In this document: positions 3,401 to 52,599 of the stretch, in pieces | Numbering within the stretch: the stretch's first letter is position 1 | How the letters are laid out: each line of letters opens with the position of its first letter | Program-made: the position numbers and the translations under genes | DNA from: Blasia pusilla | Lineage: Eukaryota | Length of the DNA stretch: 64,000 nt | Assembly (NCBI GenBank): GCA_050084515.1 | Contig: CM114271.1 | Span: forward strand, 26,226,001-26,290,000 | Direction of reading: 5' to 3' | The notes under the pieces: generated by a model | Databases searched by the model: none | The model's input: only the letters and a program-made list of their open reading frames with translations | Told to the model about the DNA's origin: nothing

Positions 3401-4689
3401 AACATGGAAAATAGTGGGAAATAGAATAATTTTTTGTTCAAATTCAAGCATAAGAAGCTTAATTTTCAAACGATGCTCTAGTTTCTTGATGTTATATGAA
3501 TATGAACAATTGCACCATATTTGCAAAACGGCCATCCTTCCCAAATCGATAATTTGTTTTTGAAACATTGCGATTATGGTGTGACTTTTGATAATCATAA
3601 CCATTGCAAGTGGAATGGTTGCAAAGTAGCTTGCGATTCCCGGATAGTCGCAAAATAGTTTCCATGATATTTTATGCCCATCATATAACTAATAATATTT
3701 GCAAATTTTGACGACTAAAAATAACACAATCGATTAGAAATCACATCTAAACCGAAAAATCTTCCGCAACCACAATAGGAGTCGAGAAGAGAAGAGTGAT
3801 TCACAGTGTCTTGTATCTCCCCTTGAATTAACCCATCACATCCCTTTGATGACCATGGACTAGTTCTAAATTGACACAAATACAAGGGACATGTGAAAAA
3901 TATGTCTATCCTACGAGGCAAAGAGTAGATTTGAAGATCCTCTCGGGATACTCCGAGGGACATGTGGAATAGATGCCCATACTACTAAGTGGTGAGTAAA
4001 CATAAACATCCTCCATATGGTACCCTCAGGGAGGTTCCATGAGATCTGCTCTACAATAAAAACTAAATGCAAGAGCACTACAACCTTTCAAAGTCAAAGC
4101 AATATTCGGGGAGATCGAGGATTACAAGTAAAGCTAGCCGGTCAAAATTGAGAATTTCCAATTCATTTAAAAGTTTCCTACCGAAAACCAACTGGATTTA
4201 TGTAGCTTCTGTGTATAACATATTTAAAACCGGGATAAACATTTCCGATTGGAAATTCCCGGTAATGTAGTAGGTCCCACGGAAAAACTCCCCGAACCCT
4301 GAACCAAAGGCCATCAATGTATCAAGGTCACTCACACCCACCACCACACATGAATAGTGAACTTACAAAAAAAACCAAGATCCATGAACGCATTCCTACC
4401 CAACCTCCCAATGAACAAGAATAAGTCCTCATCCTACTTTCTCACCTCAAGTTCCCAAGAAGGAAAGAAAAAATACGAGATCTCAATAAAAAAAAGGATG
4501 GTGGAAAACCCATCGGAAATACAAAAAGGGAGGCCACAACCCCAAAAAAGTCACCTCTCCCATCGACTAAAGTTGCTAAAGTCACCGACAATGGAAGAAA
4601 AATATCGGCAACCCCTAAAGAGACCACCACTAAATGGGAGAGAAAGCATAAGAAAGAAGGTGAGAGGGATATATATATATATATCCCCG

Positions 4690-23452: not shown

Positions 23453-24239
23453 TATATTATAGTGGGCGACCCTATATGTATAAAATAATGGCAGAGTAGG
23501 ACAAAATAGCAACATGCTTGAATTTTTTCTCTTTTTCACATTAGGTGGTTTATATCAAACAAGTAGAGAAAATACATTTGAGTGGAAGAGGAAAATATTT
23601 TAATTAATTTATTAATATTATAACGGATGATCCTAGGTATATAAGAAGACGATATGAAGGGGGTGGGGATGGAATTTCTTTGGAGAACTAATGGCCCCAT
23701 GAAGTGAAGTTGGTGTTTCAATTTTAAGATTCCTTTAGAAAGTTACTTAAATGGGAAAAGAAGTAGTGGGGATTCACTAAAGGGTTGCTTTGGGTGTGAG
23801 ATTGCTTCATTTAGAGTAAACTTTATACAAGGTCACAAATTTAGAGACCTTATCTCCCCTAAGATTGGAGGTTTTCTAGCATCCACATGATGATAGAGGA
23901 GACTAGTATAATTTAAATAGATCATTGTAATTACCTGTGACTTATGACTTAACTAACTCCCTAAATTTTTAATCAAATTCTTAAATAAATTTTGAACGGT
24001 CTCATTGGTTGAGAGGATAAATGATTCAATTGGTTGACAGGGTCAAGTGTTCCAAGAGGATAGGTGTTTGAAAATTAAAGGGGAATTCTTCAACAATAAT
24101 ATAGATGACACACTATGTGATACGACAATCTAGCCGTCCATGTAAGAAAGGTTGAAATTGTAGAGGTAATATGAAAGCTTAAATTTGGAGAAGTATGGAG
24201 GAATTAATCCAAGACAAGATTGGAGGAAAACTAAAATTG

Positions 24240-25066
24240 AATCCCTTGACGTACCGCCGATAGAAGTTCGCCAATCCCATGAATGCGCGAACACGGCTCA
24301 CATCAATAGGGCGGGGAATGCGTGAGATAGCCTCTACCTTCGTCTGCTGAACACCAAGGCCCCCTGGGTATATTGAATGACCCAAGTACTCAATCTGGTC
24401 GTAGAAGAACTTGCACTTGCCTGGATGTAGCTTCAACCCATGAAGTTGCAATCGTCCAAACACCTCCTCTAGATGTCGCTCATGCTCCTCAACCGTGGCG
24501 CTAAAGACTACAGTGTCATCAATATAACACCTAGCAAAATCCATACCAGCCAAGATCCTATCCATGACCCTCTAAAACTCAGCCGGGGCGTTCTTTAACC
24601 CAAATGGTAAGAACCGCCACTGATACAAACAATCCTTCCCGTGAGGATCGATGCCCCAAAATGCCGTCTTCTGCCTATCCTCCAATCTGATAGGCAGCTG
24701 ATGATATCCGGCTCGCAAATCCAATGAACTGAAGACCTTTGCGTGACCAATCGCATCAAAGATCTCCTCAAGGGTGGGCATGGCATACCTATCGAACTTC
24801 ATCTGCCGATTGATAGGTCGGTAATCCCCACACATCCGCCTATCCGTCCAGTTGCCATGCACATCCTTCTTGGTGAGCATGACGGTGGCAGATGCATACT
24901 CCCCATGCGACATCTCCACTAGTCTTGCTCCAACCAAGTCTTGGCTCCTACTCTGAATCAGAGGTCTCTCCATATCATTGTACCTATAGGGTCTTCGGAA
25001 GATCAGCGTATCACTCGATAACTCAATGCGGATCCCCGGTCCCTTCAGCTTACCCAAATCCTCCAT
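24240..25066 (-). pseudogene. Ty3/Gypsy reverse transcriptase (one in-frame stop at ~24572, truncated)
   Basis: RRPYRY, RMCGDYRPIN, DLRAGYHQL, PFGLKNAPAEF*RVMD, CYIDD, LKLHPGKCKF, IEYLGH, VRAFMGLANFYRRYV. Confidence 0.93.
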
Positions 25067-25512
25067 GCTAAACGCAAAGCAGCTCCTATAACTCCTGAGA
25101 AACTAATCTATTCGGTGCCGCTCTCCTCCTGTCAACTTAGGGCCCATATCTCGCTCCCAAGTCTCCATCGTGACAACGGTAGGACTCTCCGGCGCAGGTA
25201 TCGGTGATTGCTATGGTGCAACCCCGTCTCAAACAACACTCGACCGCTCTCCTGCAACCAATTGCAAACTCTGATCTCCTCCACATGCAATGTGCGGCAC
25301 CACTCTTGATGCTGTGGCTATCATCTCCTGGCGTACCTGCAAAAAATCCCAAGAAGTCCAAGGGTGTCTCTCCCAATCTCCCATGGTGTGTCGATCTCCT
25401 CGGGTCTCGCCCCAACCATTGCCTCCACCGTCTCGGTAGGCATGGGGCTCACCAACGCAACCGTTGTGATCTGTCGCGATCTCATCCGACGCTGCTCAGC
25501 CACTCCCAAGGT

Positions 25513-27203
25513 GAAGATCCATGTCAAGCAGTTCAGGTCCATCGCCTAATCCAAGACATGGCGTCGTGATGCCTCTGATACTGACGGTATTGCCTTCACT
25601 CCTACAGGAAATCCCATTGCCCGCTCTCTCTCATCGGCGTTGGGCTCCACCAACCTCTGAACTTGGTCATCCCAAACCAAGCCAGGATCGGCCTCCTTGT
25701 ATGCATAGGAAGCGGGAAAACTCACAAACGTGGTAAACCCTAAACCCGCGGTTTGCCTATCCTGTTGACCACAATCAACGGTGGTCGATCATCGTGCCTC
25801 ATTTCCTCTGAGCGATGACTTGGATCCAGAATGGAATCCACTAACAAATGGAAGGGGCGCTCCACTCTCGCATACGCCCTCATCAAAATTTAGAGAGGCA
25901 GTTACAAGGTATCCTTACGTTATGGTTTTGAAAATGTGCAAAATTTTCTCTAAGACTAGGTTTCGCTTATATTCTTATATGTAATCAAGAACCCTAAGTA
26001 TTACGATTTTAATTTAATGCCTTCATCATACCTGGCTCTTCTACGTTGTCGTGTTGCGAGTTTTTTCTTCGAGTAAGGGCTAACCTTCTAGCTGAAGCAA
26101 TCATTCGTGTAAGGTGAATTCTCTAATAAATTCCCTTATTGAGTATAGAATTACTACATTCACTCTCCATTCTCTCACAAAAAAATCACAAATGGTAGTG
26201 CCGAGATGACCACTTCTTCATAACATCTAACCCCAAAATTCATAATAATAAAATCTTTCTAAACTACTTTACGCTTGTACACAAGAAAAATAACACAACT
26301 AACTAGTTTTGAATCCTACTCAAACAAGTCTATTTACATCCATATATCACTAAATAAGGACATACAAAGTACAATCCCATGTCCTTCCGTACGTGATAAT
26401 AGGAAGTATCACTGAAGTTGATGATTGTATAATATGGTTCATGAATGCCTCTCTAAATCGGTAGACTAGATAATGAGTGAACCAATAACTATCTACAAAG
26501 AAGAAATTTATGTTGTATGGATTAAGAAAAGGAAAATTAGGTACAAAACACGCTCCATCCCTATCAATGATTAACGAATATCATCTATTCTCCTCTCATT
26601 CCCTACACAAATTTAGATCATGGATAAATTGGTACATACCTTCCGAATGGGGCACCAAGTTGGTCCACCATAGACGCGGGAAATGGGCTCTAGAACCTAC
26701 ACTCGCCGCATCCAAGAACATTGTTGGGCCGATCCAGGCACGCACCTGATGAGCACTCGTCACCGCCCGTGACCTGGAGTCTCCTAAGATCGGCACATTC
26801 TCAAGAATGTAGGCTGGAGAACGAGACTGGTGCTCTTGCAACTGCCGTAAGATCCTCAACATCTCCCAAAAAAACGTGGACCGAGTGTCAACCAACCCGC
26901 TACCTCGTCCAGCACTCGATTGGCCATGACATGGCCAACCGGAAATGACCAAATCAATGGTGCCTAACCGGTCTAAGTCATGTGCCCCCAGCAACAAAAT
27001 ATCCCTCGGTAGGGAACTCTGGTACCCCTATACCGCGGACGCAGACAATAAGTCGGGAAACGTAGGCATAACTGCGCCTCATGTCGTAGTGAGACGCGCC
27101 TCGCAACATCATCACTCTCCACATACAGGTACAGTTGCACTCGCACTCCAGCCTGCAAAATAGCAGCTAACCCGGTGCTAATCCCTCCAAAGAGATCCAA
27201 CAC
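25513..27203 (-). pseudogene. Retrotransposon-encoded DNMT3-like C5 cytosine DNA methyltransferase domain (disrupted)
   Basis: Motif I VLDLFGGISTGL; motif II YLYVESDD; motif IV IDLVISGWPCHG (Cys codon 26931-26929); DTRSTFFWEMLR; motif VI YILENV; motif VIII LDAASVGSRAHFPRLWWTNL; after the insertion, motif IX EPNADERERAMGFP and motif X SRRHVLD*AMDLNCLTWIF. Frameshifts at ~27055 and ~25735. Confidence 0.9.
25892..26640. mobile_element. 749-bp AT-rich insertion of unknown class interrupting the methyltransferase
   Basis: Removing it plus one 2-bp AA/TT overlap restores ...TNLVPHSE-ILMRAYARVERP... in frame; composition differs sharply from the flanks; no clear TIRs. Confidence 0.65.
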
Positions 27204-27598
27204 TCAAATACCCTCCTCCAGGATACACCACACAATGGGTGTGGTATCCAAGGGTATTATCGTAGCACTCCCTGCTACCTCGGGTTCCTCAGACCCATCA
27301 CGCTTCAGTGCAAACGTCTCGCTCCACGCGGTCTGCACGTGCTCATCTGCCAATCGTCGAAGCTCCTCAGTCGAGCCCCACAACGGCACGTCTCCTCCAC
27401 AAAATGATGCGACTACCATAACACTCATCTATATAGAAATGTCAGGAATGGGAGTATCCCTCTGCATGGACATGTCCCTCAATCAAATCACTAGGCCAAG
27501 TGATGGCACTGCTAAATGTTGCGAAGATCGCCATCTCTCCTTGCCGCCGCTCGATCACTGCACATGTAAATCAAACGGGTAATGATCTAAGGCGCCCA

Positions 27599-27940
27599 TC
27601 ACCTAAGTGCCATCCTGGTCTCTAGGATGCGCGACTCCTCCCAATAATCCAGGGACAACCCCATCGGGTATAACACTGCTCCACCAACCAAGACGTCGTA
27701 GGACTCTACATCAGTCACTATCGCCTTGGCGCGCACCACGGCCTCATCTGTAGGATGTCCCGGGAAAATCCTCACCACAACCTCCTGTTGGGTGATATAC
27801 TGTATGGTACTCACTCCACCCAAGGATGTCTGTATCCGTAATGGACAACGCTCCACATTGGCTCTCGTCAAGCCCAATCCTGTGAATGACGCTTTCCCCA
27901 ACATCAGGGGTTGCGCTCCTGAATCCAACAAGACACGCTG
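27599..27940 (-). pseudogene. Retroviral-type aspartic protease
   Basis: VLLDSGAQPLML (D-S-G active site), flap region IQTSLGG, C-terminal YDVLVGGAVL. Confidence 0.85.
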
Positions 27941-28225
27941 CGGATTAAAAGCTCTACCTTGGGACTCACCAACTGGAAGACCGCTCCTCGGTTATCCAAC
28001 AAGACAACATCACGAGAAGCCATGGCACGCTCTATCACGCGTCTAGCGGGCATCTCCGCCATCCTAGCAGCCGCAGCCTGCCATGAATCTGACATGGACG
28101 GCCCGAGCATCCGCTCCAAGGGCAAGTCCATCACCTCCTCTGCAATCATCTCTGAATGTGATGCAAGAACTCCAACTCCACGCTCACATACCGTAGCGGT
28201 CAATTGAAAAGGGCGCACCCCAACG

Positions 28226-30140
28226 TCATAACATCGAAAGCAAAAAATAAAGGAGCGCGGTACACAATGGTGGCCTCCCCAACAACGTGCTCGACACATG
28301 CCCCTCCTGAGCATCAACAATAGGAGTCGTTGCACTCGCTTCTCCCATCGCCCTTTGTGCATGCACACCAACAACATCACCAACTCTCCAGGAACTTTGA
28401 TCAGGACCCATCGATGGGATCCTCATCGCCTCGGACAATGTGAAAGAGTGAGGAACCCTAGTCTGTTTCTTGGCTTCCCCTCGCTGTGGATCCAACTCTG
28501 CGGCTGCTCCACGCGTCACAACTGCAGCTGCCTCCATCTGGACAACCCCGCACATCCAACCAGGATCCTCCATATCTTTGGCTGCTCCATATGATTTCGA
28601 TGCCACGGATCCGGCATCTGGTAATCTCAATGCCATACCGGAAATCTACTCCTATAGTTGATGTATCTGAGCAGCCATCCTAGCCTCACGCCCAAAATCT
28701 CCCTCAATGCGTCTAGGAAGTGGGACTCTACCTCCTCCACGGGCAGCTCCACCACAGTGTCGGGAAACTCCAGCTCCTCGTCCCCCAACGGGAACATCTG
28801 GTGCACGATTTCTAGGCCCACCCGGACCGGCTACTCGCTCTGGTGCCCTCTCTGGCCCTCGGTTCGGACGTAACTCAGGATGTAAAATGAAACACTTGGC
28901 GCGTGTATGACCATACCTCTGACAATAGTCACACCGATAACCTTATGGTGCAACACCATCTCCTCCTCCATGTTGAGCCACACGTCCATGACCCTGACGA
29001 GTGCAATCGCGTTGATGATGGGCTCCACCACATGACCAACAAGTAATAGTAGGCGGCTACTACTGAGCCGCATATGAAGGTGCAAGTCTATGTGGCATGG
29101 CCTCCGGTATCCTCCCTGAGCTTGTGGTGCCACAATCGACCTATCTCGGAGTCCACGTTGTTGCATAGGTAGTGCAGGAAATCGTGAGTGCTCTCGCCCA
29201 GAACCCATGGTGGCTACGCTCTCTTCCGCCATGTTGCGCTCAATATTCTCGGCGGTCCTAAAAACATCTCTCAGCGTAGGGGAGGTGTTCATAAGAACCA
29301 CCCCCTCCCGCACTCGTGTCCGCAGGGTCCGGTCCAGCATCGCGTACCATGATTGGATAGCCTGACCCTCTATCACCCCTTGGGTGACGTTGATCAACTG
29401 GCGCAAGCGGTGTAAGCCTCATGCAAACTCTCACCCGGGCGCTTGTGGAAGTCGTGGATGTTCCGCAACTTCTCCGTCCATACCCCCTGGTAGCTCGCCC
29501 TCAACTGAGCAAAGAACTCAACCACGGGGTTGAACCTGGGACGAACCCGACTAGATGGTGCAACTGCTCCAGTGTGAGTGACCCCTCCTAAAACATCACT
29601 AGTGGAAGAGGAAGTAGCCTCTCTTGACTCCTCCTCCTCATCTGGGAATGGCTCCGTCCATGACACATAATGTGAGTCGTAGTAGAGCCTCCACGCCTCA
29701 ATCTCACGTGCATATCTCTTAGAGAACTCATGGTAATCGTCCATGGGCGCCCCCTCTAAATGCTGAAACATACCGTTCCATGTTGTAAACGGGTTAAATT
29801 CTCTAGAGTTCTTGGCCCGCTGGGAGTCGCACCAACTCCTAAACTCTGCTATGAAATCGTGCAACTCAATCGTGCCTATTGCACTTGAAAACCTACGCGG
29901 TCCTCTACTCGGGTTGTCCATCTCCTACACCCAACTAGTAGGACCACTCACATTGTATAGCGATGTGCTCACAAACTCCTCTACACGTTCCCCCTCGTCT
30001 GAAGACGACACAGAAGGAGTTCGAGGTGGTCCCTCACGTGGAGACCCTTGAAACCTCGCGCCACTCCGCGTAAAACCTCTAGAACTACTCTCGAGTTCAC
30101 CACATTGCCTCTCCAAGTCCCGAACGGACGTCGTGATGAC
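28226..30140 (-). pseudogene. Gag with CCHC zinc knuckle(s), frameshifted
   Basis: Capsid-like segment (LHDFIAEFRSWC ... KLRNIHDFHKRPGESLHEAY); canonical CDYCQRYGHTRAKC knuckle at ~28892-28934 and a variant CWSCGGAHHQRDC at ~29003-29041, both in a frame not shown in the ORF track. Confidence 0.8.
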
Positions 30141-30931
30141 CCTCATGCTCCTCTCACCCAATCCCTCTCTCCTCGCGAGTAATCCCTCAATCACTCATCC
30201 CAAACATGCGGCACTCGATCTACACTCTCCCTCCCCGAGACGTGTAACGTGCGGCAAGAAGTGGCGTGGTGCGCCAAATCGACCAGGCTATCATCTCATC
30301 AAAAACCTCCCCTCAACTCCGGACATCCCACACATGTCTATGTCCCCTAAACCACATACATAAATGATGCTCTCAACATGCACAAAACCCAATATCCCCA
30401 AATAAACTACCCAAATTCTAGAATCCCTCACGCGTGTAGGGTAAAGGACCAGAACGAGTAACCTGAACACATGTCGATGTCGCTCCTCAGCAACTGCAAA
30501 TCTCAATCCCAACTTGGTCGTGGAGACAACTCCTCCAATCAGCAAGTCATACTCCTCCCGTACTGACGTTGCTCAAAAATCCTCGATAGACAATGCGGAT
30601 CCAGTGGAATGGTGCGTCATTGCAGGCGGCATGGAACGGCTACAAACGGTACGGTCCTCGATGATGGGATGCGGCACTCGGCGGCATACCCTCCTCACTC
30701 AACAATAAACCCACACTCTGCTCCACAATGACGGTGCGGCTCCGCGATCGAGACGGTGCAGTTCGGCCACGAGTGGCATAGCGCGGCAATCAGCGGCGCG
30801 TTGCGGCTATAGGCATCACGGCACGGTACTCGATCGTCGTCGAGGGGCTACCAATCACAACATAGCAACATGAAATCAAAACTCAAACACCATAATCGGA
30901 GGTCATCTACCATCACAGGTTGATGACGAAA

Positions 30932-31180
30932 GCAATGGCGAAAAGAGTGGACAACGGCGAATCGTCGCTCGAGCAACGATGGCGATGGCGGCCAAACCTA
31001 AGTGAAATGCGTGGTGGCGGCGCAACCTAACCCGTTGAGAGAATCAAGTGGTGGCGGCGCAATTGAGAGAATCAACGGTGGTCGTGGAAGACCCTCCACT
31101 TCGTAATGGCGGCAATGGCGACCAAAGAGTGGACAACGGCCGAATGCGGTTCTGAGCAACGTTGGGCAACGGCAACGGCC
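30932..31180. repeat. Degenerate direct repeats in the retroelement 5' leader
   Basis: GCAATGGCG..AAAGAGTGGACAACGGC..GAGCAACG at 30932 and 31112; GTGGTGGCGGCGCAA and TTGAGAGAATCAA each occur twice between them. Confidence 0.65.
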
Positions 31181-32002
31181 GACGATGGACGGTGGATGGT
31201 GGACCGTTGACCGTTGATGGTGATGGTTGACCGGCGACCGGCGACGGCCGCCGTCGGCGTGGCGGTTGGTTTAGGGTTTGAACAATTTAACCCTAAAAAT
31301 TGCCTAACAATGGCAGTTTTGCAAGATTGACCATAACTTTTTACTTGCAACTCTGAATTGCGCACCATTTATTGCACAATGTGCACAGCTTCACGATCTA
31401 CAATAGCATTAAAAAATATTTGTAATTGGAAATTCTAGTAAAAAATGACAGGGATTGTTGTAAAACCCAATGTCTCTTTCTCCTACACAAAATTCGGGAG
31501 CGCTTCCGCGCTGATTTCTCCCAACCAAAATGTAAAACTTGTAAAAATACAAATCAGCAAGCTACATGGTACTCCCAAGAGCACCGGCATGGGGCAATCC
31601 GCCCCCATAATCAATCCCTATCAGAAATTGGGCAGCGCTTTCACGCGCCACTCTTCCCCCAGAAAAATTGGCAAATGCAAAGAACAATCAAAGCAGCCCT
31701 TGCTCCGGTGAGCACTCCCATGAGCCGCTAAACGGGGAACACGGTCCCCAACCTGCAAAAACAGTGAGTGATCAGCAAGCTCCCCCATGAAGCTCTTGCA
31801 TTCTCTCTTCTCTCATTCTCTCTTTCTCTCATTCTCTCTTTGTAAAGTAAGATCAATCTCTCTCTACACCATCTCACACCATAGCTCTCAAAGGTGTGCA
31901 CTCTCTCTCATGTCAAACCAAACCCACTCTCCTAATGAGAGGCTTGGTTTACACTCACAAGGCAAGGGACCATAGCTCCGCCGCCTCATGCCAAGAGGTT
32001 CA

Positions 32003-32355
32003 ACAAAGAGAGAATGAGCTCTCAAGCTCTCTCTCCTTGAGGTATACCCCTCCCCTCTCCCAAGCTCTCTCCATGATAACATATTCTCCCAAGTCACCTC
32101 CTTGGCTCTTGACCTGATGTAGGAGGTCAAGGGGCACTTACCAAAAATATAAAGTAGATCATATATTCAAAAGGGTACTTGCCTAAAATAGTAAGTTCCT
32201 CAATATGGCTCCAAATGAGCCAAAACGAAGGGGAAACTTGCTCTCTTAGGTGTCCCGGGGCCTTAGCAGGTCATCCTCAACATATTGAGCATGTCCTCCA
32301 CTACTCACAAAGGCGCTCTACTAGATCTCATCGATCTATCCTAAAAGACGTGACA
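32003..32355 (-). repeat. LTR-like segment, copy 1 (direct repeat of 34394-34723)
   Basis: Near-identical to 34394-34723; both end CTAAAAGACGTGACA on + (TGTCACG start on -). Confidence 0.85.
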
Positions 32356-34386
32356 GCACCATCAGTACAAGAGGAGTATGACTTGCTGATTGGAGGAGTT
32401 ATCTTCACGACCGCGTTGGGGTCAAGATTTTCAGTTGCCGAGGAGCAACATCGACATTATTTTCAGGTTACCCATTCAAGTCTCTTACCCTCCAAGTGTG
32501 AAGGATTTCTGGGTGTTGGGAAGTTATTTGGGATATTGGGTTTTGTGCTGATGCTAGGAACATCGATGATGTATGGATTTAGGGGACATGGACCTATGTG
32601 GGATGTCTAGAGTTGAGGATGGTTTGTGGATGAGATGATAGATCAGTTGATTTGCCGCACCACGCTGCTTGTTGCCGCACACGCCTCAATGAGAGAGTGT
32701 AGATTGAGTGCCGCATATTTAGTTTGAGTGATTGAGGGATTACTCGCGAGATTGAGAGTGATCATGTGAGAGGGGCATGAGGGCCATCACGGCGTCCTTT
32801 CATGATTTTGAGAGGCGAGGTAGTGGATCTGAGAGTAGGTCATGAGGGTTTACCCGGAGTGGTGCGAGGTTTCGAGGGTCTCGAAACCTCGCACCACTCC
32901 GGGTAAACCCTCCAGAGGGACCACCTCGATCTCCTTCTATGTCGTCTTCAGACAAGGGGGAGCGTGTAGAGGAGTGTGTTAGTGATCCTCCTTACACATT
33001 GAGTGGTCCTACTAGTTTGGCGTATGAGATGGACGACCGAGGTAGAGGACTGCGTAGGTTTTCGGGTGCTATAGGCACCATAGAGCTACACGACTTCATT
33101 GCGGAGTTTAGGAGTTGGTGTGACTCACAGTGGGCCAGGAACTCTAGAGAGTTCAACCCTTTTACAACATGGAACGGTATGTTCCTGCATTTAGAGGAGG
33201 CGCCCATGGACGATTGACATGAGTTCTCCCACAGATATGCCCAAGAGATTGAGGCATGGCAACTCTACTATGACCGACACTATGTGTCATGGACGGAACC
33301 GTTCCCATATGAGGAGGAGGAGCCAGGAGAGGCTGCTTCCTCTTCCACTAGTGATGTTTTAGGAGGGGTCACTCGCACTTGAGCAGTTGCATCATCTAGT
33401 CGGCTCCTTCCTAGGTTCAACCCCGTGGTTGAGTTCTTTGTTGAGTTGAGGGCGAGCTACCACGGGATACGGACGGAGAAGTTCGGAGCATCCACGACTT
33501 CCAGAGGCGCCCGGGTGAGAGTTTGCGTGAGGCTTACACTCGCTTGCGCCGGTTGATCAAAGTCACTCAGGCGATGACAGAGGCTCAGGCTATCCATTCA
33601 TGGTACGCTATGCTGGATCGGATCCTATGAACACGGGTGCGGGAGGGGTGCTACTTATGAACACATCCCCTATGTTGAGAGATGTTTTTAGAACCATCGA
33701 GAACATTGAGCGCAACATGGCGGAGGAGAGCGTAGCCACCATGGGTTTTGGGCGAGAGCAGTCACGATTGTCTGCACCATGAGTGCAACAACGTGGACTC
33801 CGAGATAAATCAAATGTGGCACCACGAGCTCAAGGAGGATACCGGGAGGCCATGCCACAGAGACCTGCGCCTTCATATGCGGCTCAGCAATAGCCGCCTA
33901 CGATTACTTATTGGTCATGTGGTGGAGCCCATCATCAGCATGATTGCACTCGTCAAGGTCATGGACATGTACCTCAACATGGAAGAGGAGATGGTACTAC
34001 ACCAAGAGGTCATCAATGTGACTATTTTTAGAGGTATGGTCATACACGCGCCAGGTATTTCAGTTTACACCTTGAGTTACATCCGGACCGAGGGCCAAAG
34101 AGGGCACCAGAGCAAGCTGCCAGTCCAGGTGGGCCTAGAGATTGTGCACCAAGTCGTCCGGTTGGGGGACGAGGAGCAGGAGTTGCCCGACATGGTGGTG
34201 CAGTTGCCCGTGGAGGAGGTAGATTCCCACCACCTAGACGCGTCGAGGGAGACGTCGGGCGTGAGGCTGGGATGGTTGCTCAGATACAGCAGCTACAAGA
34301 GCAGATTTCCGCTATGGCATTGGGGTTACCTGATGCCGGATCTGTGGCATCAACATCATATGGAGGATCCAGAGATGTGGAGGATC
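32356..34386 (+). mobile_element. Second, inverted copy of the leader + gag of the DNMT-carrying family (pseudogene)
   Basis: Reverse complement of 28564-30572; e.g. GLRRFSGAIGTIELHDFIAEFRSWCDSQ vs GPRRFSSAIGTIELHDFIAEFRSWCDSQ; independent stops and frameshifts. Confidence 0.9.
32844..32912. repeat. Perfect 33-bp palindrome with 3-nt loop
   Basis: GAGGGTTTACCCGGAGTGGTGCGAGGTTTCGAG-ggt-CTCGAAACCTCGCACCACTCCGGGTAAACCCTC. Confidence 0.95.
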
Positions 34387-34723
34387 TTATTTTACAAAGA
34401 GAGAATGAGCTCTCAAGCTCTCTCTCCTTGAGGTATACCCCTCCCCTCTCCCAAGCTCTCTCCATGGTAACCTATGCTCTCAAGTCACCTCCTTGGCTCT
34501 TGACCTGATGTAGGAGGTCAAGGGCCACTTAGCAAAATAAGAAAATCGATCAGATACTCAAAATGGTACTTACCTAAAATAGTAAGTTCCTCAATATGGC
34601 TCCAAATGAGCCGAAACGAAAGGGAAACCTGCTCTCTCAGGTTTCCCGGGGCCTTAGCAGGTCCTCCACTACTCACAAAGGGGCTCTACTAAATCTCACC
34701 GATATATCCTAAAAGACGTGACA
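34383..34723 (-). repeat. LTR-like segment, copy 2 (23-bp internal deletion relative to copy 1)
   Basis: Direct repeat of 32003-32355 lacking CATCCTCAACATATTGAGCATGT; joined to the gag copy through a GATC microhomology at 34383-34386. Confidence 0.85.
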
Positions 34724-37243: not shown

Positions 37244-39349
37244 AATATACTCCAAATTTTACTAGAGAAGACACTTCAATGGGAACTAAACGTCCTACTA
37301 ATAAAGGGACTCCCTCCCTCCCTCCGTAGCTCCAATGGTGATAGACGGTGATGGAGGCAGCGGGGCACGATGGTGGAGGCAGCCGAGAACCGAGGGTGAT
37401 TTTGGTCGGTAGGGGGGGACCCCTTCTGTCTCTTCGGGGCCGATTTTGGCTCGCAGGTTTTTGGCTCTCTATGCCCCCCCAAACAAATCATATCTTTAGC
37501 GACCATAAAGTTGATTTTGTCACATTAGAAGACAATAGAGCTAATCCATTCGCACCCTTCCACAAGTAATAATTTTATTTCATGATTGTAATGTAATCAA
37601 TGTAGTTAATCCTCACAAAGTTGTAATTTAAGGTAAGAATTTCATTTCATAATTATAATATGATATATTTAATCAGATTTTAGAAGAGTTCAACATGAAA
37701 AGAAAAAACTATTTCTTCTTTTAGGAATACGCATGTAGCCTTAATAGTCTAGATTCATGATGAAATTGTAGAGACATAAAATATTCACAACCCCAACCCA
37801 AAAAAATGTATAAGATGGCTCATTTTTGTTCCTTTCAAAACATTGAATTCATGTTTCATATAAGACTTTTTTACATGGAGGTGACAATGTCTCATTCATG
37901 TATTGTAGCATTCTATATCATGAACTTTCCCCTTGTTTCCCCACTTGAACTTGAAGTGCTACCAATACAATACAATACAATACATTTTGTGTCAAGGTTG
38001 TAAGTTGTATCCCCTTTCTTCAAAATTGATCCACCTGATCTCTCCACTCATAATTCTTTCCCTTGCGTGCAAATTTTTACGAGAAGCAAATAATAATGGA
38101 TATGTCAAGTTTGGTCATTATGGAGAGGCTTTCAACAAAGATAAATAAAATAAAAAAATATTTAAAACAAATCCTTGAAGAAAGATTCATGAATTCTTGT
38201 AAAGTACCACACGAATCATATGTCACACTTGGACGTCACAAACCTACAAGATACCCTTAGTATGAAGCCAGTCATATTCCTTTGTGATGAATGTCACGTA
38301 AATTTTGCATGAGCCAAAAAGTATTAATTATCAAACAAAGATTAGCTGGGTATAATTATTTTTAGTAGACTCATCGATTTTAATTAGTGGCCCAATTATA
38401 ATAGAGTACACATTTGGAGATGAAGAATTCCATATGAGATTGATCAAAATCTTTAGTAAAACTAGCATCATATGTAAGGAAGTACTTGTAAATCAAGTGG
38501 GATGAGAATATATACATCTTGAAATCTTCTCTAAGCTAGAAATTTTGGAGAATAACCTTATCTTTCCTCAAATTGACTAAAGTCCAAGGAAAAATAAGGA
38601 TATATTAATAGACGTGAGAACCCTGTTCTGTGGTCTACATGTAGAAATCTTTTTTTCCCTTAAACCAAGAGAACATTGTAGATTCATTATGTTACATAGC
38701 ACAATTCATCTTTTAATATTCAAATTTTCCAAACACTCATAGAATAAAGCTATGTTGACCCTAAGTTCTACTTAAATCCACAAAAGCAGAGAATAGTTTG
38801 GGGTTAATTTATGGAAAATGCGATGATCCAATTTTCCGGTAGGAAAACTATTCGAGAAATCCCTTCTTTTTCTAGAATAGAATCCATATCATAGAGGACT
38901 GCGTTAGATTATACCAAGAAAGTTAAATAATTGAGGCAAAGAACGCAAAAATTACCATGCTCTTTCATAATTTCTAATCTTAGCCATCTACAAACTAAAG
39001 GATTTGCTATTTATAGCTTTAATTCTCCATTTTAAGGGAACCTGCCTTAACAACCATCAATATCATATCAATCGGCCTCCACATTGGTTGGATATCACAT
39101 TATCTTGTTATTATTATAATTGTTAGTATATGACAATGTTACAATGATGTATGTTATGTAAAGATGTTTAAGGAAAAACATTATAATATTGGAAATTATG
39201 ATGCGATTCAACTAAAAATCTTGGAAATTAAACCAACTCTTCATTTTTCAACCATTCTTTTCTTTTTTCCTTTTGGGAAAAACTTGAACTTATTAAGGGT
39301 CCTTTTTCATCTATTTCTTGATCAAATCCGATCCTTAGTCATCCAATAT

Positions 39350-42327
39350 AGCACAACAAGAGTGGGTTGTGAAATTTGTACCCCTCGTCAATTTAATAGA
39401 ACTTTAAAATATGTTGAAGAAGCATGGGTGATTTTGGTAGCTAAGTTAGAAAAAAAATTTGATTCTCCTAGTAATTCTCCTATCCAGGTTCAGATGGCTC
39501 ATCTTTTAGAGGAATATAAAGATATTATGCCAAATGAACTTCCATCTCAATTACCTTCTAGAAGATCTTTAGATCATAAAATTGATCTTATACTTGGTTC
39601 GGACATCCCTAATAGGGGTCATGGTCGATGATTGACATATGCTGAATTAGAGGAACTCAAACATCAATTAACTGAGCTTTTAGAAAAAGAGCATATCTGA
39701 CCTAGTGTATCCCCTTATCCAGACCCAATACTATTTGTAGCTAAGAAAGATGGTACTATTAGAATGTGTGGAGATTATCGAGCATTAAATAAGATTACTG
39801 TCAAGAATCGATATTCATTGCCCCTTATGGATGAAACTATGGATAGGTTAGCAAAAGGAAGGTTCTTCACTAAGTTAGATTTAAGATCAGGTTATCACCA
39901 AATTAGAATATCCGAAGGGGATGAATTTAAGACTGCTCGTACGCGCTATGGTTTGTATGAATGTGTTGTGCTACCTTTTAGTCTTACTAATGTACCTGCT
40001 ACTTTTTGTACATTAATGAATGATATCTTTAGAGATTTGTTAGATGTATGTGTGATAGTATATTTAGATGATATAATAATCTTCTCTTCTACTTGGGAAC
40101 AACATATGTTAGATGTTAGAGAGATTTTTGATCGTCTATGTCAAGAAAAAATTATATGTTAAAAAGAGTAAATGTTCTTTTGGACAATCAAATGTAGTTT
40201 TCTTAGAATGTTTAATTAATAGTGAAGATGTTCATCCAAACCATAATAAAATTCAGGTATTATTAAGTTAGCATAGATCCCAAAACATAGCAAAGACTTG
40301 TTCATTCCTTGGATTAGCTACTTATTTCGGAAGACATGTTAAAATGTTTTCTGAAATAGCTAGTCCATTACATGCTCTAACTAGTAAGAAACATGTTTAA
40401 AGTTGGACCCAAGAGTGTGAAATAGCTTTTGAAAAACTCAAAGAAATTTTGAGTACTGAACCTGTATTAGCTCTACCTAATGTAAGAGAATCATTTGAGG
40501 TGCATACTGATGCATCCAATCTGGCCATTGGAGGATTGTTAATCCAAGCTAGGAAATCGATAGCTTATGAGTCCCATAAGTTGAGTGAGACAGAGATAAA
40601 GTGGGTAGCTCATGAAAAAGAAATGTATGGTGTAATATTTTTTTTTAAAGGTGGGAACACTACCTCATTCCAAGTACAGTCACTATAGTAACTGACAATA
40701 TTGCTAACACCTATTTTCAAACCCAACCCAGACTTTCACCAAAACAAGTTAGGTGGCAACTTGAATTATCTAAATACCATGTTATTTGGAAGTACGAGAA
40801 AGGAAAAGAGCATATACATGTTGATGTATTGAGTCGTAAAGTTATTTTGTTGCTCAAACTTTGGAGCAAGAATTGCTTGACTTAGTCGGATCCGCAACTA
40901 AAGTTGATCTTCAGGCAAGAGAGTGGCATCGCCAACAAGCAAGCGATCCTAAGCTTTTGAAATATTTGCAATTTAAAATGGATTGTGGGTTTTTTAAAAA
41001 GATAGAGTGTACATTCCAGATGGAGAAATTAGGACTACGATTTTTAGTGAGTACCATGATTGTATATTAGCTGCTCATGGTGGGCATGAGAAAAATCTAG
41101 ACCGAGTGAAATACATATTTTATTGGCCTTCTTTAATAAGAGATGTTGAACAATATGTAGCTTCATGTATAGTTTGTCAACAAAATAGAGCTTATTATAG
41201 AAAAATGGTTGGTTTATTTCAACCTTTACCCATACCTGAAGGAATTTGGGAATCAATCAGTATGAATTTTGTATTGGGATTACCTATGTCATAGGGTTTT
41301 AATGCTATTTTGGTTGTGTGTGATAGATTTAGTAAACAAGCACATTTTGTTCCTTGTGTAGAGTCAATTTTTGCCAAGCAGACTGCTGGTTTATTTCTTA
41401 CTTATGTATTTAGATTACATGGACTACCCAAAGATATAGGTAGTGACAGAGATATCCGCTATAATTCTGATTTTTGGACTCGGTTGTTCAATAGATTAGG
41501 TACTAATCTGAAATTTAGTACAACATTCCATCCTCAAACTGATGGACAAATAGAGCGTGTAAACCAAGTGCTAGAACAAGGATTACGGAATTATATTATA
41601 GGAGATTAATTAGATTCGTCTTTGCATTTAGCACTTATAGAGTTTGCTTATATTTCCACTCGACATTTTGCTACAGGATTTGAACCATTTGAGATAATAT
41701 ATAGAGGTAAATACCCTCTATTGATACCTATTTCCTTATCTATGTGGAATGAATCAACTTCTCCACAAACCCCCTCTACTCCTGATGTAGATTTGTATTT
41801 AAAATATCAATGGTTTTGTGTTAGATATGGCTAAAGCTAACATGCAGAGAGCTCAACGTCGATACGCAAAACAAGTAAATCAACACCGTCGAGAGATGGA
41901 ATTTGAGGTAGATGATCGTGTATGGTTGAAAACCAAGAATTTTAATTTTCCTTTTGAACAAGTGAGAAAGTTAGTACCTAGATGGGCTGGTCCTTTTACC
42001 ATTATTAGGAAAATTCAAAAGACCGCTTATGAATTGAAATTGCCTCCTCGTATGCATCAATATCATCTAGTGTTTCATGTTTCCTTGCTTAAGGAATTTG
42101 TGGAAGATTTAGAAAGTTTTTCAGATAGAGAACAAAAATGGCATCCGGTATTAGAGAGTTTACCGTCTTTGGATGATATGCAAGTGGAAAAGATTTTAAA
42201 TGACCGCTTAGTGCCAAAAGAAAGTGGTCAATATGAGAGGGAATTTTTTATTAAATGGAAGGATAGAGGAATATCCACTTCCACTTGGGAACCTCAAATG
42301 AAATTACCATGGAATCAAATGAGATAA
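39350..42327 (+). mobile_element. Decayed chromovirus (Ty3/Gypsy) pol: RT - RNase H - integrase - chromodomain
   Basis: [46 protein letters not shown]; integrase H-H-C-C (YHDCILAAHGG ... CIVCQ), DRFSKQAHF, HPQTDGQIERVNQ; WAGPF; chromodomain VEKILNDR...FIKWKD...TWEP. Many stops and frameshifts; gag and protease absent. Confidence 0.92.
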
Positions 42328-48275: not shown

Positions 48276-51270
48276 TCATCTTGCATTATCTGAACCTGCT
48301 AACCTGCCTAATAATTTATCTAGCCCTGGACAACTCAGCCCAGGGCTCATATTATTGGTCAATGTCATAAGGTTATCAAACCTGAGGTTAGCATTGCCAT
48401 TTGATAAGTTTTCCTCCACAACTCTTCTTATCTTATTCTCCAGAATTATCAGGTTGGAGGCAATACAATCGACTTCATTAGATCTATCACACATTCTCAA
48501 TAAGCTACTATCTAGTTCAGTTAGCAGTCCAAATTTTGAATCCACATCTGTACTTCCCAACCCAGAGAGCTGCTCAGACACTCCGTCAACACACTTCTGG
48601 TGTGACTTTGCCTGCACGAAAAGCCATCCACATCACTCATTCTCAGAGTTCACCAATACATGTCAAAAACCTGCAACTGAGATATTAACCTTGATAATAC
48701 TTCTCAGGTTGTGGATTCCACATGAAACTTGCAGAGAGGAAGAGAGGAACGCCCAGGAAGGGCAGGCTTTGAAGACATGCATTGAATCTCCTTGCAAGTG
48801 CAGTTTCAGTGATACAAAAATGCTAGACCAAGGAATAGCATCAACAAAAGAAACGGAAGTACAGCCACAGCTTTGACATCATCCGGTTACCCCCTTATTG
48901 TAATGTGTTTTTGGACCTGGAAAGAACTGGACATCAGTCTTGCCCCATACCAGATCTTTTTCTCATCAGAACAACAAGACTATCTCAGGGTGGACTAATA
49001 CTCTCGAGTTTTGGCAACCCAAGATATATGTGATCTGCATTATCTGTAGCGGACTGAGATATGGGAGTTAATCCTGGATCAACGAGACATCCTAAAACAT
49101 CCTCTAAAGGAGATGAGTCTAGGCACATCTAAAACGCTGGGCAGGAGGATTGCACACTCCAAATTCCTTCACTCATCAGAAAAGGAGCCTGCCAACAGAA
49201 ATCAGGATACACTGCTAATCTCAAATTCTGAAATCCAAGAAATATTTGATTTTCAATGTCTGTGACTACGTTAGGTAGGGGAGATGACCTTTGTCTCAGA
49301 AAAGACTCCTAAGATTCTTATTTTTCAGCCACAATTCAATGGAAAAGGCATTCAAGACATTGATACAAATCCCTATCCTTCCACACAAAATAATCTAAGT
49401 GCTGATAAAGTGAACTTCATAGACTTACCCCTGACTGCATCCAATGCACGACTGCTTTCAGCTGCTGCTCTCTGTAGACAGCCACCTTTTCCTTGACTTC
49501 GATTTCTGCCAGTTTCTCCATGGCCTGCTGCAATGCCATTGTCAGTTTATCACACCTGGCCTCCATCTCATCACACCTACCGCAGCAATTTTTTTTGTTC
49601 TCCCCACCACAAACTAACAGCTCGCGGCCCTTCAGTCCTGGGAATATTTGTTGCTTTGGGACAACTACAACTACATCATTGGAACTTTTGGAAGTGGCCA
49701 CCGAAAAATGTTGCAATCTATCACAATCAGCACAGTCTCCACCATAAAATGAATCAGTCGGTTCCGACTTTTCACTCACTGAAGAGAGATCTTTGCTGCT
49801 CCTACTTGGGTTTGCATCAACTCTTTCCTCATGCACATGTGAGGGCTTGAAACTAATCCACTTGGAAGGCGTCGGGTCACTAGCCAATATTCCTGAAGAC
49901 CCCATTTCGTCACTACATTGGTTTCCCTTGCTTGTATTGCAGTCCAGAGGTTTCATGTTACTTGCAGCTGAAATTTCTGAAGCCTTGATGGAATAGTCCT
50001 TTTCATTACAAGAGCTCTTCAACACGGACCTGTCAGATACCTTGGAAAAGGTAGTTAGTTGAATCTGCTCCCGGTCTGCATGTTCATAAGGTTCAGAAAG
50101 TGATCGACTGTCCACTAGTGGCAAGACAAAAAGGTCAGTTTCCTGGTCTTCATCCTCAGAAACCTCTCCGCTAAACCTACCAACTACTTGCTGTCCCTCA
50201 AGACTTTCTGGATTCGGTAAATTCAGCCCACATTTAGGCAGTTCCATGGACTCGCCAACATTACCACCATCCTGGCAATCATCCTCGGAACACCCTCCAA
50301 GCTTGTTGTCCTCGTCCTTTACATCATCTTCAAGATGTAAGCCTGCATGCCTAATAGTCTCAGGTGTTGAGGCATTAGCTCCATTTTCAAGAAGAATGTA
50401 CGGTTTGGTGGGCTTCTCATCCAGGCGAAATTCTTGGAAAGAACCCGGGTTCAAAGCCTGGGAAAGCAAAGACCCCACATCTACCTCCATCATTGAACTC
50501 GACTCAAGGGCAAGCAGAGGCGATCCAGGAAAGAACATCGTGGCAACAGCTTGCACAGGGATTTCAAGATCTGGAAAAGGAGATGATAGTGAGGAAAGCT
50601 CAAGGTCAGGGAAAGGTGTGGATTGTCCTGTTCCCGAGGTAGGGGACAGTAGATGCGCAAGTGGACTGCCAGGGTAGAGCTGGTAGGCGGCTTGAAGATC
50701 TTCAGCCTGAAAAATGTCTGGAGACGCGAAGGGTGATGCAGAGTACGTCGGTGCAGGTTGTTGTCTTACCGGTCCTTTAGTCCCAAACGAATTAGCCAGC
50801 AACTGGGCGAACGGAACGTCAGGCGAGGATGGGGTAGTCACATGAGTAGCAGGTTCAGGAGGAGGTGTGAAAGGAGCAGTGGAAGGGGCAGTGGTGAAAG
50901 TGGAGAAAACGGGGGGAGAAACAAGTGCTGTCTCGTGGGCGTAAGGGCCCATTTGAAACATAGAGGGAGTTTCAGGAATTTGAGAAGTGGCGGAAGGGAC
51001 AGACAGTGAAACAGAAAATGTGGCAGGTGATTGCGCTGACGACTGGACTGCAGAGTTTTGAAACGAGGCCGGTGAGGAAGGAGGGGCTAACAAAGAAGGG
51101 GAAAGAGATGCATACTGATTCGAGCCGCCAGACTGCGGAGCACCATTAGCTGCCCATGTCCGAGATGATGAATTACTTCCATCGTGTATCCGTGTAGCAG
51201 GGGCGATTCTCTTCCCTCGCTTCCGTGTGCCCAGCCTCAGAAAACCTCCACAACAACCATTACGGCCCAT
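48276..51270 (-). CDS. At1g76660-like uncharacterised Pro/Ser-rich protein, ~725 aa; coding exons 51270-49429 and 48611-48276
   Basis: Family motifs LLAPPSSPASF, GPYAHETALVSPPVFSTFTTAPSTAPFTPPPE, TTPSSPDVPFAQLL, YQLYPGSP, STPFPD. Donor GGG|GTAAGT at 49428 and acceptor TTTTCGTGCAG|GCA at 48612 are both phase 0 and join in frame. The ATG directly follows an acceptor (aaacag|ATG), implying an upstream exon. Confidence 0.82.
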
Positions 51271-52599
51271 CTGTTTACAACACCACGTAGAAACCTATCA
51301 CACATGAGCAGGAGTATTCACAAAGCCGTTAACCCGGGGCAGTACGTGCAACCGTGGATGTCTGGTAAGTAATTTCGTGATCATGGGTGTCTAAGAAAAC
51401 AGACAGGAGGGACCGTCTTACGCAGAAGAATTATTCATTTGAGTGGAGCTCTCAAGTATGCAGACTACGTTAAGTGACCACAACTCGCCTAACAAGCCAT
51501 GCAAAAAGATTGGAGAGGTAAGACTGCATTTACGAAGAGAAATTTTACTGACCCAACTCTATAGACTTCACGAAACGCGTTCGAGCACGTGCCACGTCCC
51601 TGTTTCCAGAGACGCAAAGAACGACCTCTCACCCACGCTCTTTCGTTCTTTAAGACTCCTAGAGCTACGGCCAACAGTTCGGAAGAAAAGCAATGGGCAC
51701 ACAAACTAGAGCAAAAAGTACGGTAATGTCGAAAGCTTGCCCCATTCCGCTTCGTCAGCGACATTCAGGACTCACCCTAACGTTCGATAAGCAATGCCAA
51801 CTCGGAGTTCATTGATCAAAACGCGTGTGGAAAGGGCTACGTCATTGTTACCATAAAAGCAACACCGCCGAGACGGAAGGCACTGACAGAGCCACATAGA
51901 GTCGTGGACAAGAAAACATAACCAAGTGAAGCCATCACCTATGTCGAAAAACTAGTGTAACATGCAGGGCACAGACGGCATGGGCCTACCGGATCATCAG
52001 GAGATCGATCGCGAACCGTCGGTCCGATGGCCGCTCCCACATTCTGATCGTGTGAGTTGGCCCTGGCCATCATTCCTCTCATTTCAAAGCATCTCCTATT
52101 CAGGTTCCAGCCTTCCTCCTACGTGCCTGCTTCCGATTCCTTCACACTAAGGAGTACGACGTCTGATACACCGAAAGTGGAGACGACGAGCACAAACAGC
52201 GAGGGAGAGGCTAACTGACATCCACAGGCGAACCGGTGGCCCAGGGAGGGCACCACTTGGCCTTCATACTTGTAGTAATGCTGCACCGAGACTGCGCAAT
52301 GAAGTCTCAGAAGTTCGCTCCTATTCGATTGCTCATTTCTTTCTCAAATACGCACCAGTGCATCACAGAAGTACCACCATGGAGAGATGCGCGGGCACCA
52401 AAGACAGCAATATCGGTCTCCTTCCATCCTCCTCCCAAGGCACTAGTGACAGATGTAGCCACTACACCATTGCCGACTCGCTTCCTCGTTCGCGAGGCCC
52501 ATCATCTCCCGCACCATGCCACGGACAGATACTCCGTCCGACGCTACGCCCCCCGGAGTAGCGCGATATGAATAGGTCAAGCAAACGCTAAGGAAAACT

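Follow-up and report, generated by a model that had tools for sequence, protein, structure and literature searches.

In a 64,000-nucleotide stretch of the Blasia pusilla genome (GenBank assembly GCA_050084515.1, contig CM114271.1, positions 26,226,001 to 26,290,000 of the forward strand; hereafter the window), the minus strand holds what is very probably an old copy, dead and truncated at the 3' end, of a liverwort Ty3/Gypsy long terminal repeat (LTR) retrotransposon family that carries a DNMT3-type cytosine C5 methyltransferase in its gag-pol. We are equally confident of the family's gag-pol order: gag (CCHC), protease (PR), DNMT3-type C5 methyltransferase (DNMT), reverse transcriptase (RT), RNase H (RH), integrase (INT) and PHD finger. 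As shown below, liverworts, Closterium and many environmental contigs all have the methyltransferase in frame within pol, as a constant component of this lineage. METHYLTRANSFERASE is part of pol by four independent lines: named relatives, whole polyproteins, the DNA of relatives, and the reads of the window's own organism.

We call the element in the window copy 1. Stop-to-stop open reading frames (ORFs) and the sequence give one colinear retrotransposon reading on the minus strand from 30573 to 24240, i.e., leader, gag, protease, C5 methyltransferase and RT. Its features, in window coordinates, are:

29922..30573, minus: leader / 5' untranslated part, common to copy 1 and a second fragment, copy 2 (blastn, 30573-28564 against 32355-34386, 83%)
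28403..29921, minus: gag (tblastn, P0005 residues 4-490, 38-48% identity; 5 stops)
28933-28892, minus: CCHC zinc knuckle of gag, CX2CX4HX4C (ORF text)
27632..27958, minus: aspartyl protease (tblastn, P0005 residues 627-736, 55% identity)
27925-27917, minus: DSG of the protease active site LLDSGA (ORF text)
26643..27458, minus: linker plus DNMT3-type C5 methyltransferase, N-terminal two thirds (Pfam DNA_methylase; tblastn, P0005 residues 796-1069, 48-66% identity)
27203-27171, minus: methyltransferase motif I, VLDLFGGISTGL
26934-26929, minus: Pro-Cys of methyltransferase motif IV, DLVISGWPCHG
26802-26794, minus: ENV of methyltransferase motif VI, YILENV
26694-26659, minus: methyltransferase motif VIII, SRAHFPRLWWTNL
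25882..26642, no strand assigned: nested AT-rich insertion, 761 bp, 33% G+C (read joints and homologue comparison)
25354..25901, minus: C-terminal third of the methyltransferase (target-recognition part, motifs IX and X) and linker to RT (tblastn, P0005 residues 1066-1247, 42-57% identity; 4 stops)
25632-25609, minus: methyltransferase motif IX, ERERAMGFP
about 25560-25540, minus: methyltransferase motif X, RRHVLD*AMD, which holds a stop
24240..25180, minus: RT, cut off in the thumb/connection (Pfam RVT_1; tblastn, P0008 residues 689-994 and P0020 residues 1-285 at 74%, the latter ending at 24212)
24526-24515, minus: YIDD of RT

This reading is anchored by two Marchantia polymorpha proteins, P0005 (gag-PR-DNMT) and P0008 (PR-DNMT-RT-RH), which together give one colinear tblastn chain from 29921 to 24146 with E-values far beyond chance (1e-85, 4e-77, 2e-52 and 1e-121). 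Residues 4-1247 of P0005 map onto 29921-25354, and residues 57-994 of P0008 onto 28215-24146. Overall, proteins of M. polymorpha and Calypogeia fissa are colinear with the window at 45-75% identity. The RT is of Gypsy type, with an RVT_1 match and 74% identity to the Calypogeia RT-RH-INT protein P0020; a rice protein named 'Ty3-gypsy subclass', which serves as root of the RT tree, matches it at 33%.

An initial annotation, made from the letters of the window alone, had described gag CCHC, LDSGA, C5 methyltransferase and Gypsy RT motifs on the minus strand, and all are present where it placed them. The profile search it proposed finds DNA_methylase (1.5e-10) and RVT_1 (7.6e-10 and 1.8e-13), with the protease matches weak and under the cut-off (RVP_2 0.02, gag-asp_proteas 0.042). 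It also called the copy dead, which agrees with the approximately 10 frame changes and at least 16 in-frame stops along the tblastn chain; frame changes lie, e.g., near 29409 and 29155-29086 in gag, and near 27458 and 27072-27024 in the N-terminal part of the methyltransferase, which also has 3 stops. Of its span, 24240-30140, the start at 24240 fits, whereas the 5' part reaches at least to 30573. Two points need correction: it gave point stops and frameshifts as the only breaks, with an even composition and without introns, whereas the 761-bp segment of 33% G+C splits the methyltransferase; and the Gypsy RT that it lists is not whole, as homology (tblastn with P0008 and P0020) ends at 24212-24240, inside RT.

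Of the Ty3/Gypsy pol series protease, RT, RNase H and integrase, copy 1 has PR and RT only, and it is cut at about 24240. Genomic reads with loose ends at 24238/24240 (778 and 671) continue there into other sequence, so other copies go on where copy 1 is cut. We found no RNase H, integrase or 3' LTR of the DNMT family downstream or elsewhere in the 64-kb window, no other copy of the downstream flank in the window (blastn), and no direct repeat bracketing 24240-30573, i.e., no paired LTRs in copy 1.

The missing parts are seen in relatives. A family search with the 143-residue core domain gave 19 matches, 6 of them without an organism name, and all 12 organism-named matches at 63-71% identity are liverwort proteins (10 from M. 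polymorpha, 2 from C. fissa); an 11th Marchantia protein follows at 49%. The liverwort relatives have the domain order gag-PR-DNMT(-RT-RH) by Pfam and phmmer probes, and the arrangement is common to 10 gag-PR-DNMT proteins, 11 PR-DNMT proteins and further PR-DNMT-RT(-RH-INT) proteins. Three single ORFs, P0288 (2,327 aa), P0081 (2,072 aa) and P0077 from Closterium (1,928 aa), run through zf-CCHC, PR, DNA_methylase, RVT_1, RNase H and integrase in order, with an aspartyl protease match in P0288 and P0081 and none in P0077. P0289 has an additional C-terminal PHD finger. These four proteins and the metagenome locus L002 have the order protease, RT, RNase H, integrase.

The DNA of relatives agrees. 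A metagenome scan with P0008 alone gave no match, and an alignment as query found loci; seven of these (L001-L004, L008, L010 and L023) have PR, DNMT and RT colinear without insertion, at 56-68% protein identity to Marchantia. L002 is a whole but decayed relative: its gag-PR-DNMT-RT-RH-INT and a recognisable PHD finger lie between two direct repeats that begin with TG, measure at least 300 nt, stand 8,747 bases apart and agree at 94%. The Marchantia model P0008 (MARPO_0091s0058) jumps from residue 694 to residue 696 across approximately 310 bases. Those bases occur in all six of the loci L001-L004, L008 and L010, and in the window at 25516-25180, and P0005 spans the stretch. Going by this comparison, the P0008 model has probably lost about 100 genuine residues between DNMT and RT to an intron prediction.

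The 761-bp segment in the methyltransferase is a later nested insertion of another repeat, specific to this copy, because most genomic reads skip it and because the depth within it is lower than beside it yet far above the flank. It sits between motif VIII and the target-recognition part, and its 33% G+C compares with 52-53% in the element. All 14 homologues with the WWTN/WWSN motif cross the insertion point unbroken (the motif is missing in 5 of the 19 proteins examined). At this place 1,011 listed genomic reads (run X19) skip 758-772 bases; in 528 of them the gap runs exactly from 25881 to 26643, and 7 other letters stand in its place. The depth is 319-602 within the insertion, approximately 1,930-2,240 beside it and 3-5 in the single-copy flank, so the insertion is itself a genome repeat; blastn found no further copy of it within the window. 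It starts GAAG|GTATGT, and an intron reading was considered and ruled out: there are DNA reads without the piece, and RNA reads give the same joint as DNA reads.

The 7 letters at the 25881/26643 joint occur in three variants among the DNA reads (229, 218 and 36 reads), and the listed RNA reads (23, 16 and 29 in three runs) have a single variant in all. Going by this joint variant, the transcripts seem to come from one subfamily.

Raw reads of the window's own organism, taken at 80% likeness or more and with DNA depth summed over both mates, give the fourth line. The depth is 3.3-5.2 in two flank bins, 2,048-2,237 in gag, 2,325-2,479 in the protease, 1,933-2,236 in the methyltransferase bins and 1,972-3,514 in RT. 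The methyltransferase thus has the depth of gag and protease, several hundred times that of the flank. There are therefore several hundred copies of the family, and nearly all that have gag and protease have the methyltransferase as well. The suggestion of the initial annotation that the methyltransferase was part of pol, not a one-off capture, is borne out by this equal depth together with the same order in relatives.

The reads vary widely in likeness to copy 1: 153 are like it at 99% or more, 2,992 at 95-99%, 35,764 at 90-95% and 69,617 at under 90%. At or near nine frame changes of copy 1 (29409, 29103, 28276, 27959, 27631/2, 27458, 27057, 25743 and 25409), one third to three quarters of the reads show length differences, so these breaks are private to copy 1 or its close kin. 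The differences between reads and copy 1, pooled over sequence contexts, number 462 for C>T and 471 for G>A, versus 265 for A>G and 219 for T>C. Deamination of methylated cytosines among the copies would be expected to give a transition bias of this kind.

The family is transcribed, most likely in sense, as minus-strand RNA. In three RNA-seq runs with the same species label, the depth from gag to RT is 17-146 with the first mate on the plus strand, versus 0-15 on the minus strand. Only 113-123 of approximately 2,900-4,000 RNA reads per run are at least 95% like copy 1. Most RNA reads are under that likeness, and the transcripts therefore come from other copies.

The host is a land plant, as the initial annotation had it. 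The window contains a gene whose closest orthologues are those of liverworts:

49417-51294, minus: host gene, 625-codon open frame, At1g76660-like / 'hydroxyproline-rich glycoprotein family' orthologue

Its best named match, from Marchantia paleacea, reaches 60% across 87% of the query with E 1e-172; those from Riccia sorocarpa and R. fluitans reach 51% across 98-99%, and that from C. fissa 57% across 64%. In mosses, lycophytes and seed plants the matched part is only 27-70% of the query, with E-values of 3e-71 and weaker, and an ESM Atlas search with the host ORF gave weak leads only (0.76). By these matches the window is DNA of a liverwort, with Marchantiales the nearest of the named genomes. 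Algal contamination is ruled out by this liverwort-type gene together with the several hundred family copies in the organism's own reads.

The element belongs to a large lineage. A scan of 1.84 billion cluster representatives returned 4,268 proteins at E <= 0.001, of which 269 reach E <= 1e-30, and the top 150 are mostly long polyproteins. By phmmer probes, two arrangements occur among the 424 proteins fetched: PR-DNMT-RT-RH-INT(-PHD) in about 55, including all from liverworts and Closterium, and RT-RH-DNMT-INT-PHD in about 93, none with an organism name. We refer to their methyltransferases as the PR-DNMT and RH-DNMT types. In a DNMT tree of the 74 proteins with both domains, the PR-DNMT arrangement forms one side of a branch (Shimodaira-Hasegawa-like approximate likelihood ratio test, SH-aLRT, 97), so a single change suffices; with midpoint rooting it is nested within the RH-DNMT arrangement. 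In an RT-RH tree with 78 further relatives, RT-RH-DNMT-INT-PHD is a clade (100), and the PR-DNMT arrangement is found next to it, in an assemblage that also takes in RT-only fragments and named Klebsormidium RT proteins. The trees fit one old acquisition followed by one domain move; the DNMT tree has no host DNMT3 outgroup, and two acquisitions from like sources are the alternative.

Both the sequence and the predicted fold mark the domain as DNMT3-like, and it is non-permuted, which upholds the distinction from DRM drawn in the initial annotation. The DNMT-only fragment P0001, compared with PDB sequences using phmmer, matches DNMT3A at 6e-12 and DNMT3B/3C at 1e-9 to 6e-9, with weaker matches to tobacco DRM (1e-8), Arabidopsis DRM2 (1.6e-4) and HaeIII/HhaI (3.5e-4 and weaker). 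An AlphaFold2 model predicted from 44 aligned domains has a predicted local distance difference test score (pLDDT) of 92.1, and all 30 PDB rows listed by Foldseek for it (ranks to 50) are DNMT3A/B/C, with template modelling (TM) scores of 0.81-0.85 by target and 20-23% identity. The motif order, I-IV-VI-VIII-IX-X, is unpermuted. Host DNMT3 (animal DNMT3A/B/C; Physcomitrium DNMT3) is therefore the nearest in sequence, fold and motif order, but the element domain has only the identity just given to DNMT3A/B, lies between protease and RT, and is not preceded by a PWWP or ADD domain, as Pfam finds only DNA_methylase between PR and RT. It also has an extra segment between motifs I and IV in a gapped alignment with DNMT3A.

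Catalytic residues were counted over 171 aligned domains (PR-DNMT type, n = 44; RH-DNMT type, n = 75). The motif IV catalytic Cys is kept in 38/44 PR-DNMT and 73/75 RH-DNMT domains, the Glu of ENV in 42/44 and 73/75, and the two motif VIII arginines in 38 and 37 of 44 and in 74 and 73 of 75. Motif IX Glu-Arg-Glu is kept in 40, 36 and 41 of the 44 PR-DNMT domains. Where a PR-DNMT domain misses one of these residues, the cause is mostly a gap in a fragmentary sequence. Set against 7-8 metagenome relatives, the window copy has non-synonymous distances of 0.25-0.32 for the DNMT core, 0.19-0.27 for the DNMT C-part, 0.17-0.29 for RT, 0.36-0.50 for PR and 0.44-0.47 for gag. By this measure, DNMT appears at least as constrained as protease and gag.

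Other features of the window are:

32003..34723, plus: second family fragment (copy 2), head-to-head with copy 1, leader and gag only, flanked by direct repeats (matching part 32355-34386, 83% to copy 1)
39134-42327, plus: unrelated AT-rich (34% G+C) Ty3/Gypsy element with RT, RNase H, integrase and chromodomain-like C-terminus

The second fragment may be a non-autonomous derivative with gag only, or else the product of a rearrangement. Its flanking 353-bp direct repeats (32003-32355 and 34394-34723, 87-93% alike) have no relation to the sequence upstream of copy 1. That upstream DNA (30574-31500) is highly repeated in the genome yet unlike the copy 2 flank, and the read depth is approximately 1,060-1,290 across 30100-30951. 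Farther upstream of gag, at 30926-31049, many genomic reads skip 116-121 bases (30931 to 31048 in 168 of them); most copies are without this short tandem-like piece. The 39134-42327 element lies nearer to seed-plant Gypsy, with 40-45% identity to a rice protein, than to the DNMT family. Its RT-RH-INT at 39485-42102 (plus strand) was considered as the missing 3' part of the DNMT family and rejected, because it belongs to this other, chromovirus-like Gypsy. Scans of the window for tRNAs and Rfam families gave no match.

This kind of element is already known from algae. According to the text of de Mendoza et al. (2018, Nat Commun 9:1341, PMC5890265), the charophyte K. nitens has a Gypsy element with DNMT3-type domains in its Pol, and passages of later papers cite 'streptophytes (Gypsy-DNMT3)' (bioRxiv 10.64898/2026.05.21.726589; PMC12344493). 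Compared by text description, with domain order not part of the comparison, KnitGypsy-Dnmt3 is like the present family in having a non-permuted, intronless DNMT3-type domain with conserved key residues in the Pol ORF of a streptophyte Gypsy. Named K. nitens RT-RH proteins also fall in the liverwort family's RT clade in our RT-RH tree; among the family matches there was no named K. nitens DNMT-bearing protein. The two differ in that the present host is an embryophyte (a liverwort), that there are several hundred copies here versus the 'fewer copies' given for K. nitens in that text, and that relative L002 has plain direct LTRs, in contrast to the DIRS-like repeats described there.

SymbioDIRS-Dnmt3 and SymbioLINE-Dnmt of Symbiodinium are likewise retrotransposon-borne C5 methyltransferases, the DIRS ones being of DNMT3 type. 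As described in PMC5890265, however, they belong to tyrosine-recombinase DIRS and long interspersed nuclear element (LINE) classes in another host kingdom and were, per the authors, acquired independently; the DIRS-borne domains gave de novo CG methylation in yeast.

Chromoviruses are Ty3/Gypsy elements with a chromodomain, a chromatin reader, behind the integrase. The DNMT-family relatives share with them a chromatin-reader module at the integrase C-terminus but have a PHD finger in place of the chromodomain, plus an added writer enzyme.

For Marchantia, liverworts, bryophytes or any embryophyte, we found no description of such elements in the searchable full-text literature, supplements and subscription papers lying outside this scope, which is in keeping with the initial annotation. 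The word Marchantia is absent from the article text of PMC5890265, though Marchantia sequences may figure in the supplementary material of PMC5890265 and PMC12344493. What is new is the land-plant host, the high copy number, the transcription, the unannotated Marchantia models, the PHD finger and the two arrangements.

As a mechanism, we propose that the enzyme would be made as part of Gag-Pol and enter the particle, where it would be freed by the protease or stay on the N-terminus of RT. It would then act de novo on cytosines, probably CG, either in newly made cDNA of the element itself or in a fresh insertion. On the relatives' integrase, the PHD finger would serve as a chromatin reader and may direct integration by histone state. 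Release, packaging and substrate are purely what we infer, and we put this proposal slightly below an even chance.

Several points weigh against our reading of the family and its enzyme. Copy 1 is without RNase H, integrase and LTR pair, so its class rests on relatives. The RNA sense call follows the usual library convention, uncalibrated on a host gene. Synonymous sites are saturated (>1.1 or not computable), and the distances above give no sound ratio of non-synonymous to synonymous change (dN/dS). CpG is not depleted in the copy (observed/expected 0.77-0.79 versus a window mean of 0.71), so its own sequence has no special methylation footprint. The Pro before the catalytic Cys is Glu in 21/44 PR-DNMT and 43/75 RH-DNMT domains. 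Enzymatic activity has so far been shown for no Gypsy-borne DNMT: tested in yeast, the Gypsy-Dnmt3 domain of K. nitens produced no methylation, a result that the text of PMC5890265 calls inconclusive since human DNMT3B failed too.

The last two points would suit a methyltransferase fold kept for a non-catalytic role (DNA/chromatin binding or particle assembly), with the element depositing no 5-methylcytosine; the K. nitens domain is the sole one of its kind tested. We judge this improbable, since 84-99% of aligned domains retain each of the Cys, the ENV Glu, the motif VIII arginines and motif IX ERE, the liverwort members and copy 1 keep Pro-Cys, and the yeast failure carries the authors' own caveat. 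Glu in place of this Pro is unusual among C5 methyltransferases. A better candidate, though still an unlikely one beside methylation of the element's own cDNA or insertion, is an enzyme active in trans on host chromatin or other elements, marking the integration neighbourhood or competing with host silencing. The PHD finger behind the integrase in the polyprotein of close relatives suggests chromatin-directed action, several hundred copies belong to a transcribed family, and possible effects on the host epigenome are discussed in the text of de Mendoza et al. (2018, PMC5890265). That text also gives K. nitens, which bears such elements, a plant-like methylome, and the present data do not tell the substrates apart.

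Two further explanations concern what the sequences are. A host DNMT3 gene or piece captured once at this locus, a misassembly or algal contamination could be suspected from a domain split by AT-rich DNA with a GT after GAAG, intron-like at first sight. The reads without the piece and the unspliced joint speak against it, as do the equal depth of DNMT and gag/PR, the same order in Marchantia, Calypogeia, Closterium and seven metagenome loci, and the liverwort-type host gene 19 kb away in the window; we give it practically no weight. Liverwort genes such as Mp_4g09160 and Mp_8g17980 could instead be domesticated host genes from an extinct element, as they are annotated as ordinary protein-coding Marchantia genes and one UniRef name begins 'DNA (cytosine-5'. 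This is very improbable, given at least 11 paralogous Marchantia models with gag and protease, the several hundred copies in the window's genome, whose likeness varies widely, and the LTR pair, 94% alike, of relative L002. A retrotransposon family with the methyltransferase as part of pol is the reading we retain.

The same UniRef name calls for caution in annotation, because liverwort DNMT counts and 'DNMT3' trees will be inflated by pol fragments. A large lineage with two fixed domain positions and a single switch between them points to an old association, not to repeated accidents. Taken at its fullest, the account would be that liverworts, including Marchantia, host a living, high-copy, transcribed lineage that came from streptophyte algae with an active DNMT3 writer and a PHD reader, which would methylate its own cDNA or landing site and so add a transposon-encoded share of de novo methylation. 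We regard this whole as possible but doubtful. Retrotransposons that carry their hosts' silencing enzyme were known from a dinoflagellate and one charophyte, both hard to manipulate. With colinear, unrecognised gene models in M. polymorpha, for which there are transformation, genome editing and published methylomes, the role of a transposon-encoded DNMT becomes addressable in a tractable land plant.

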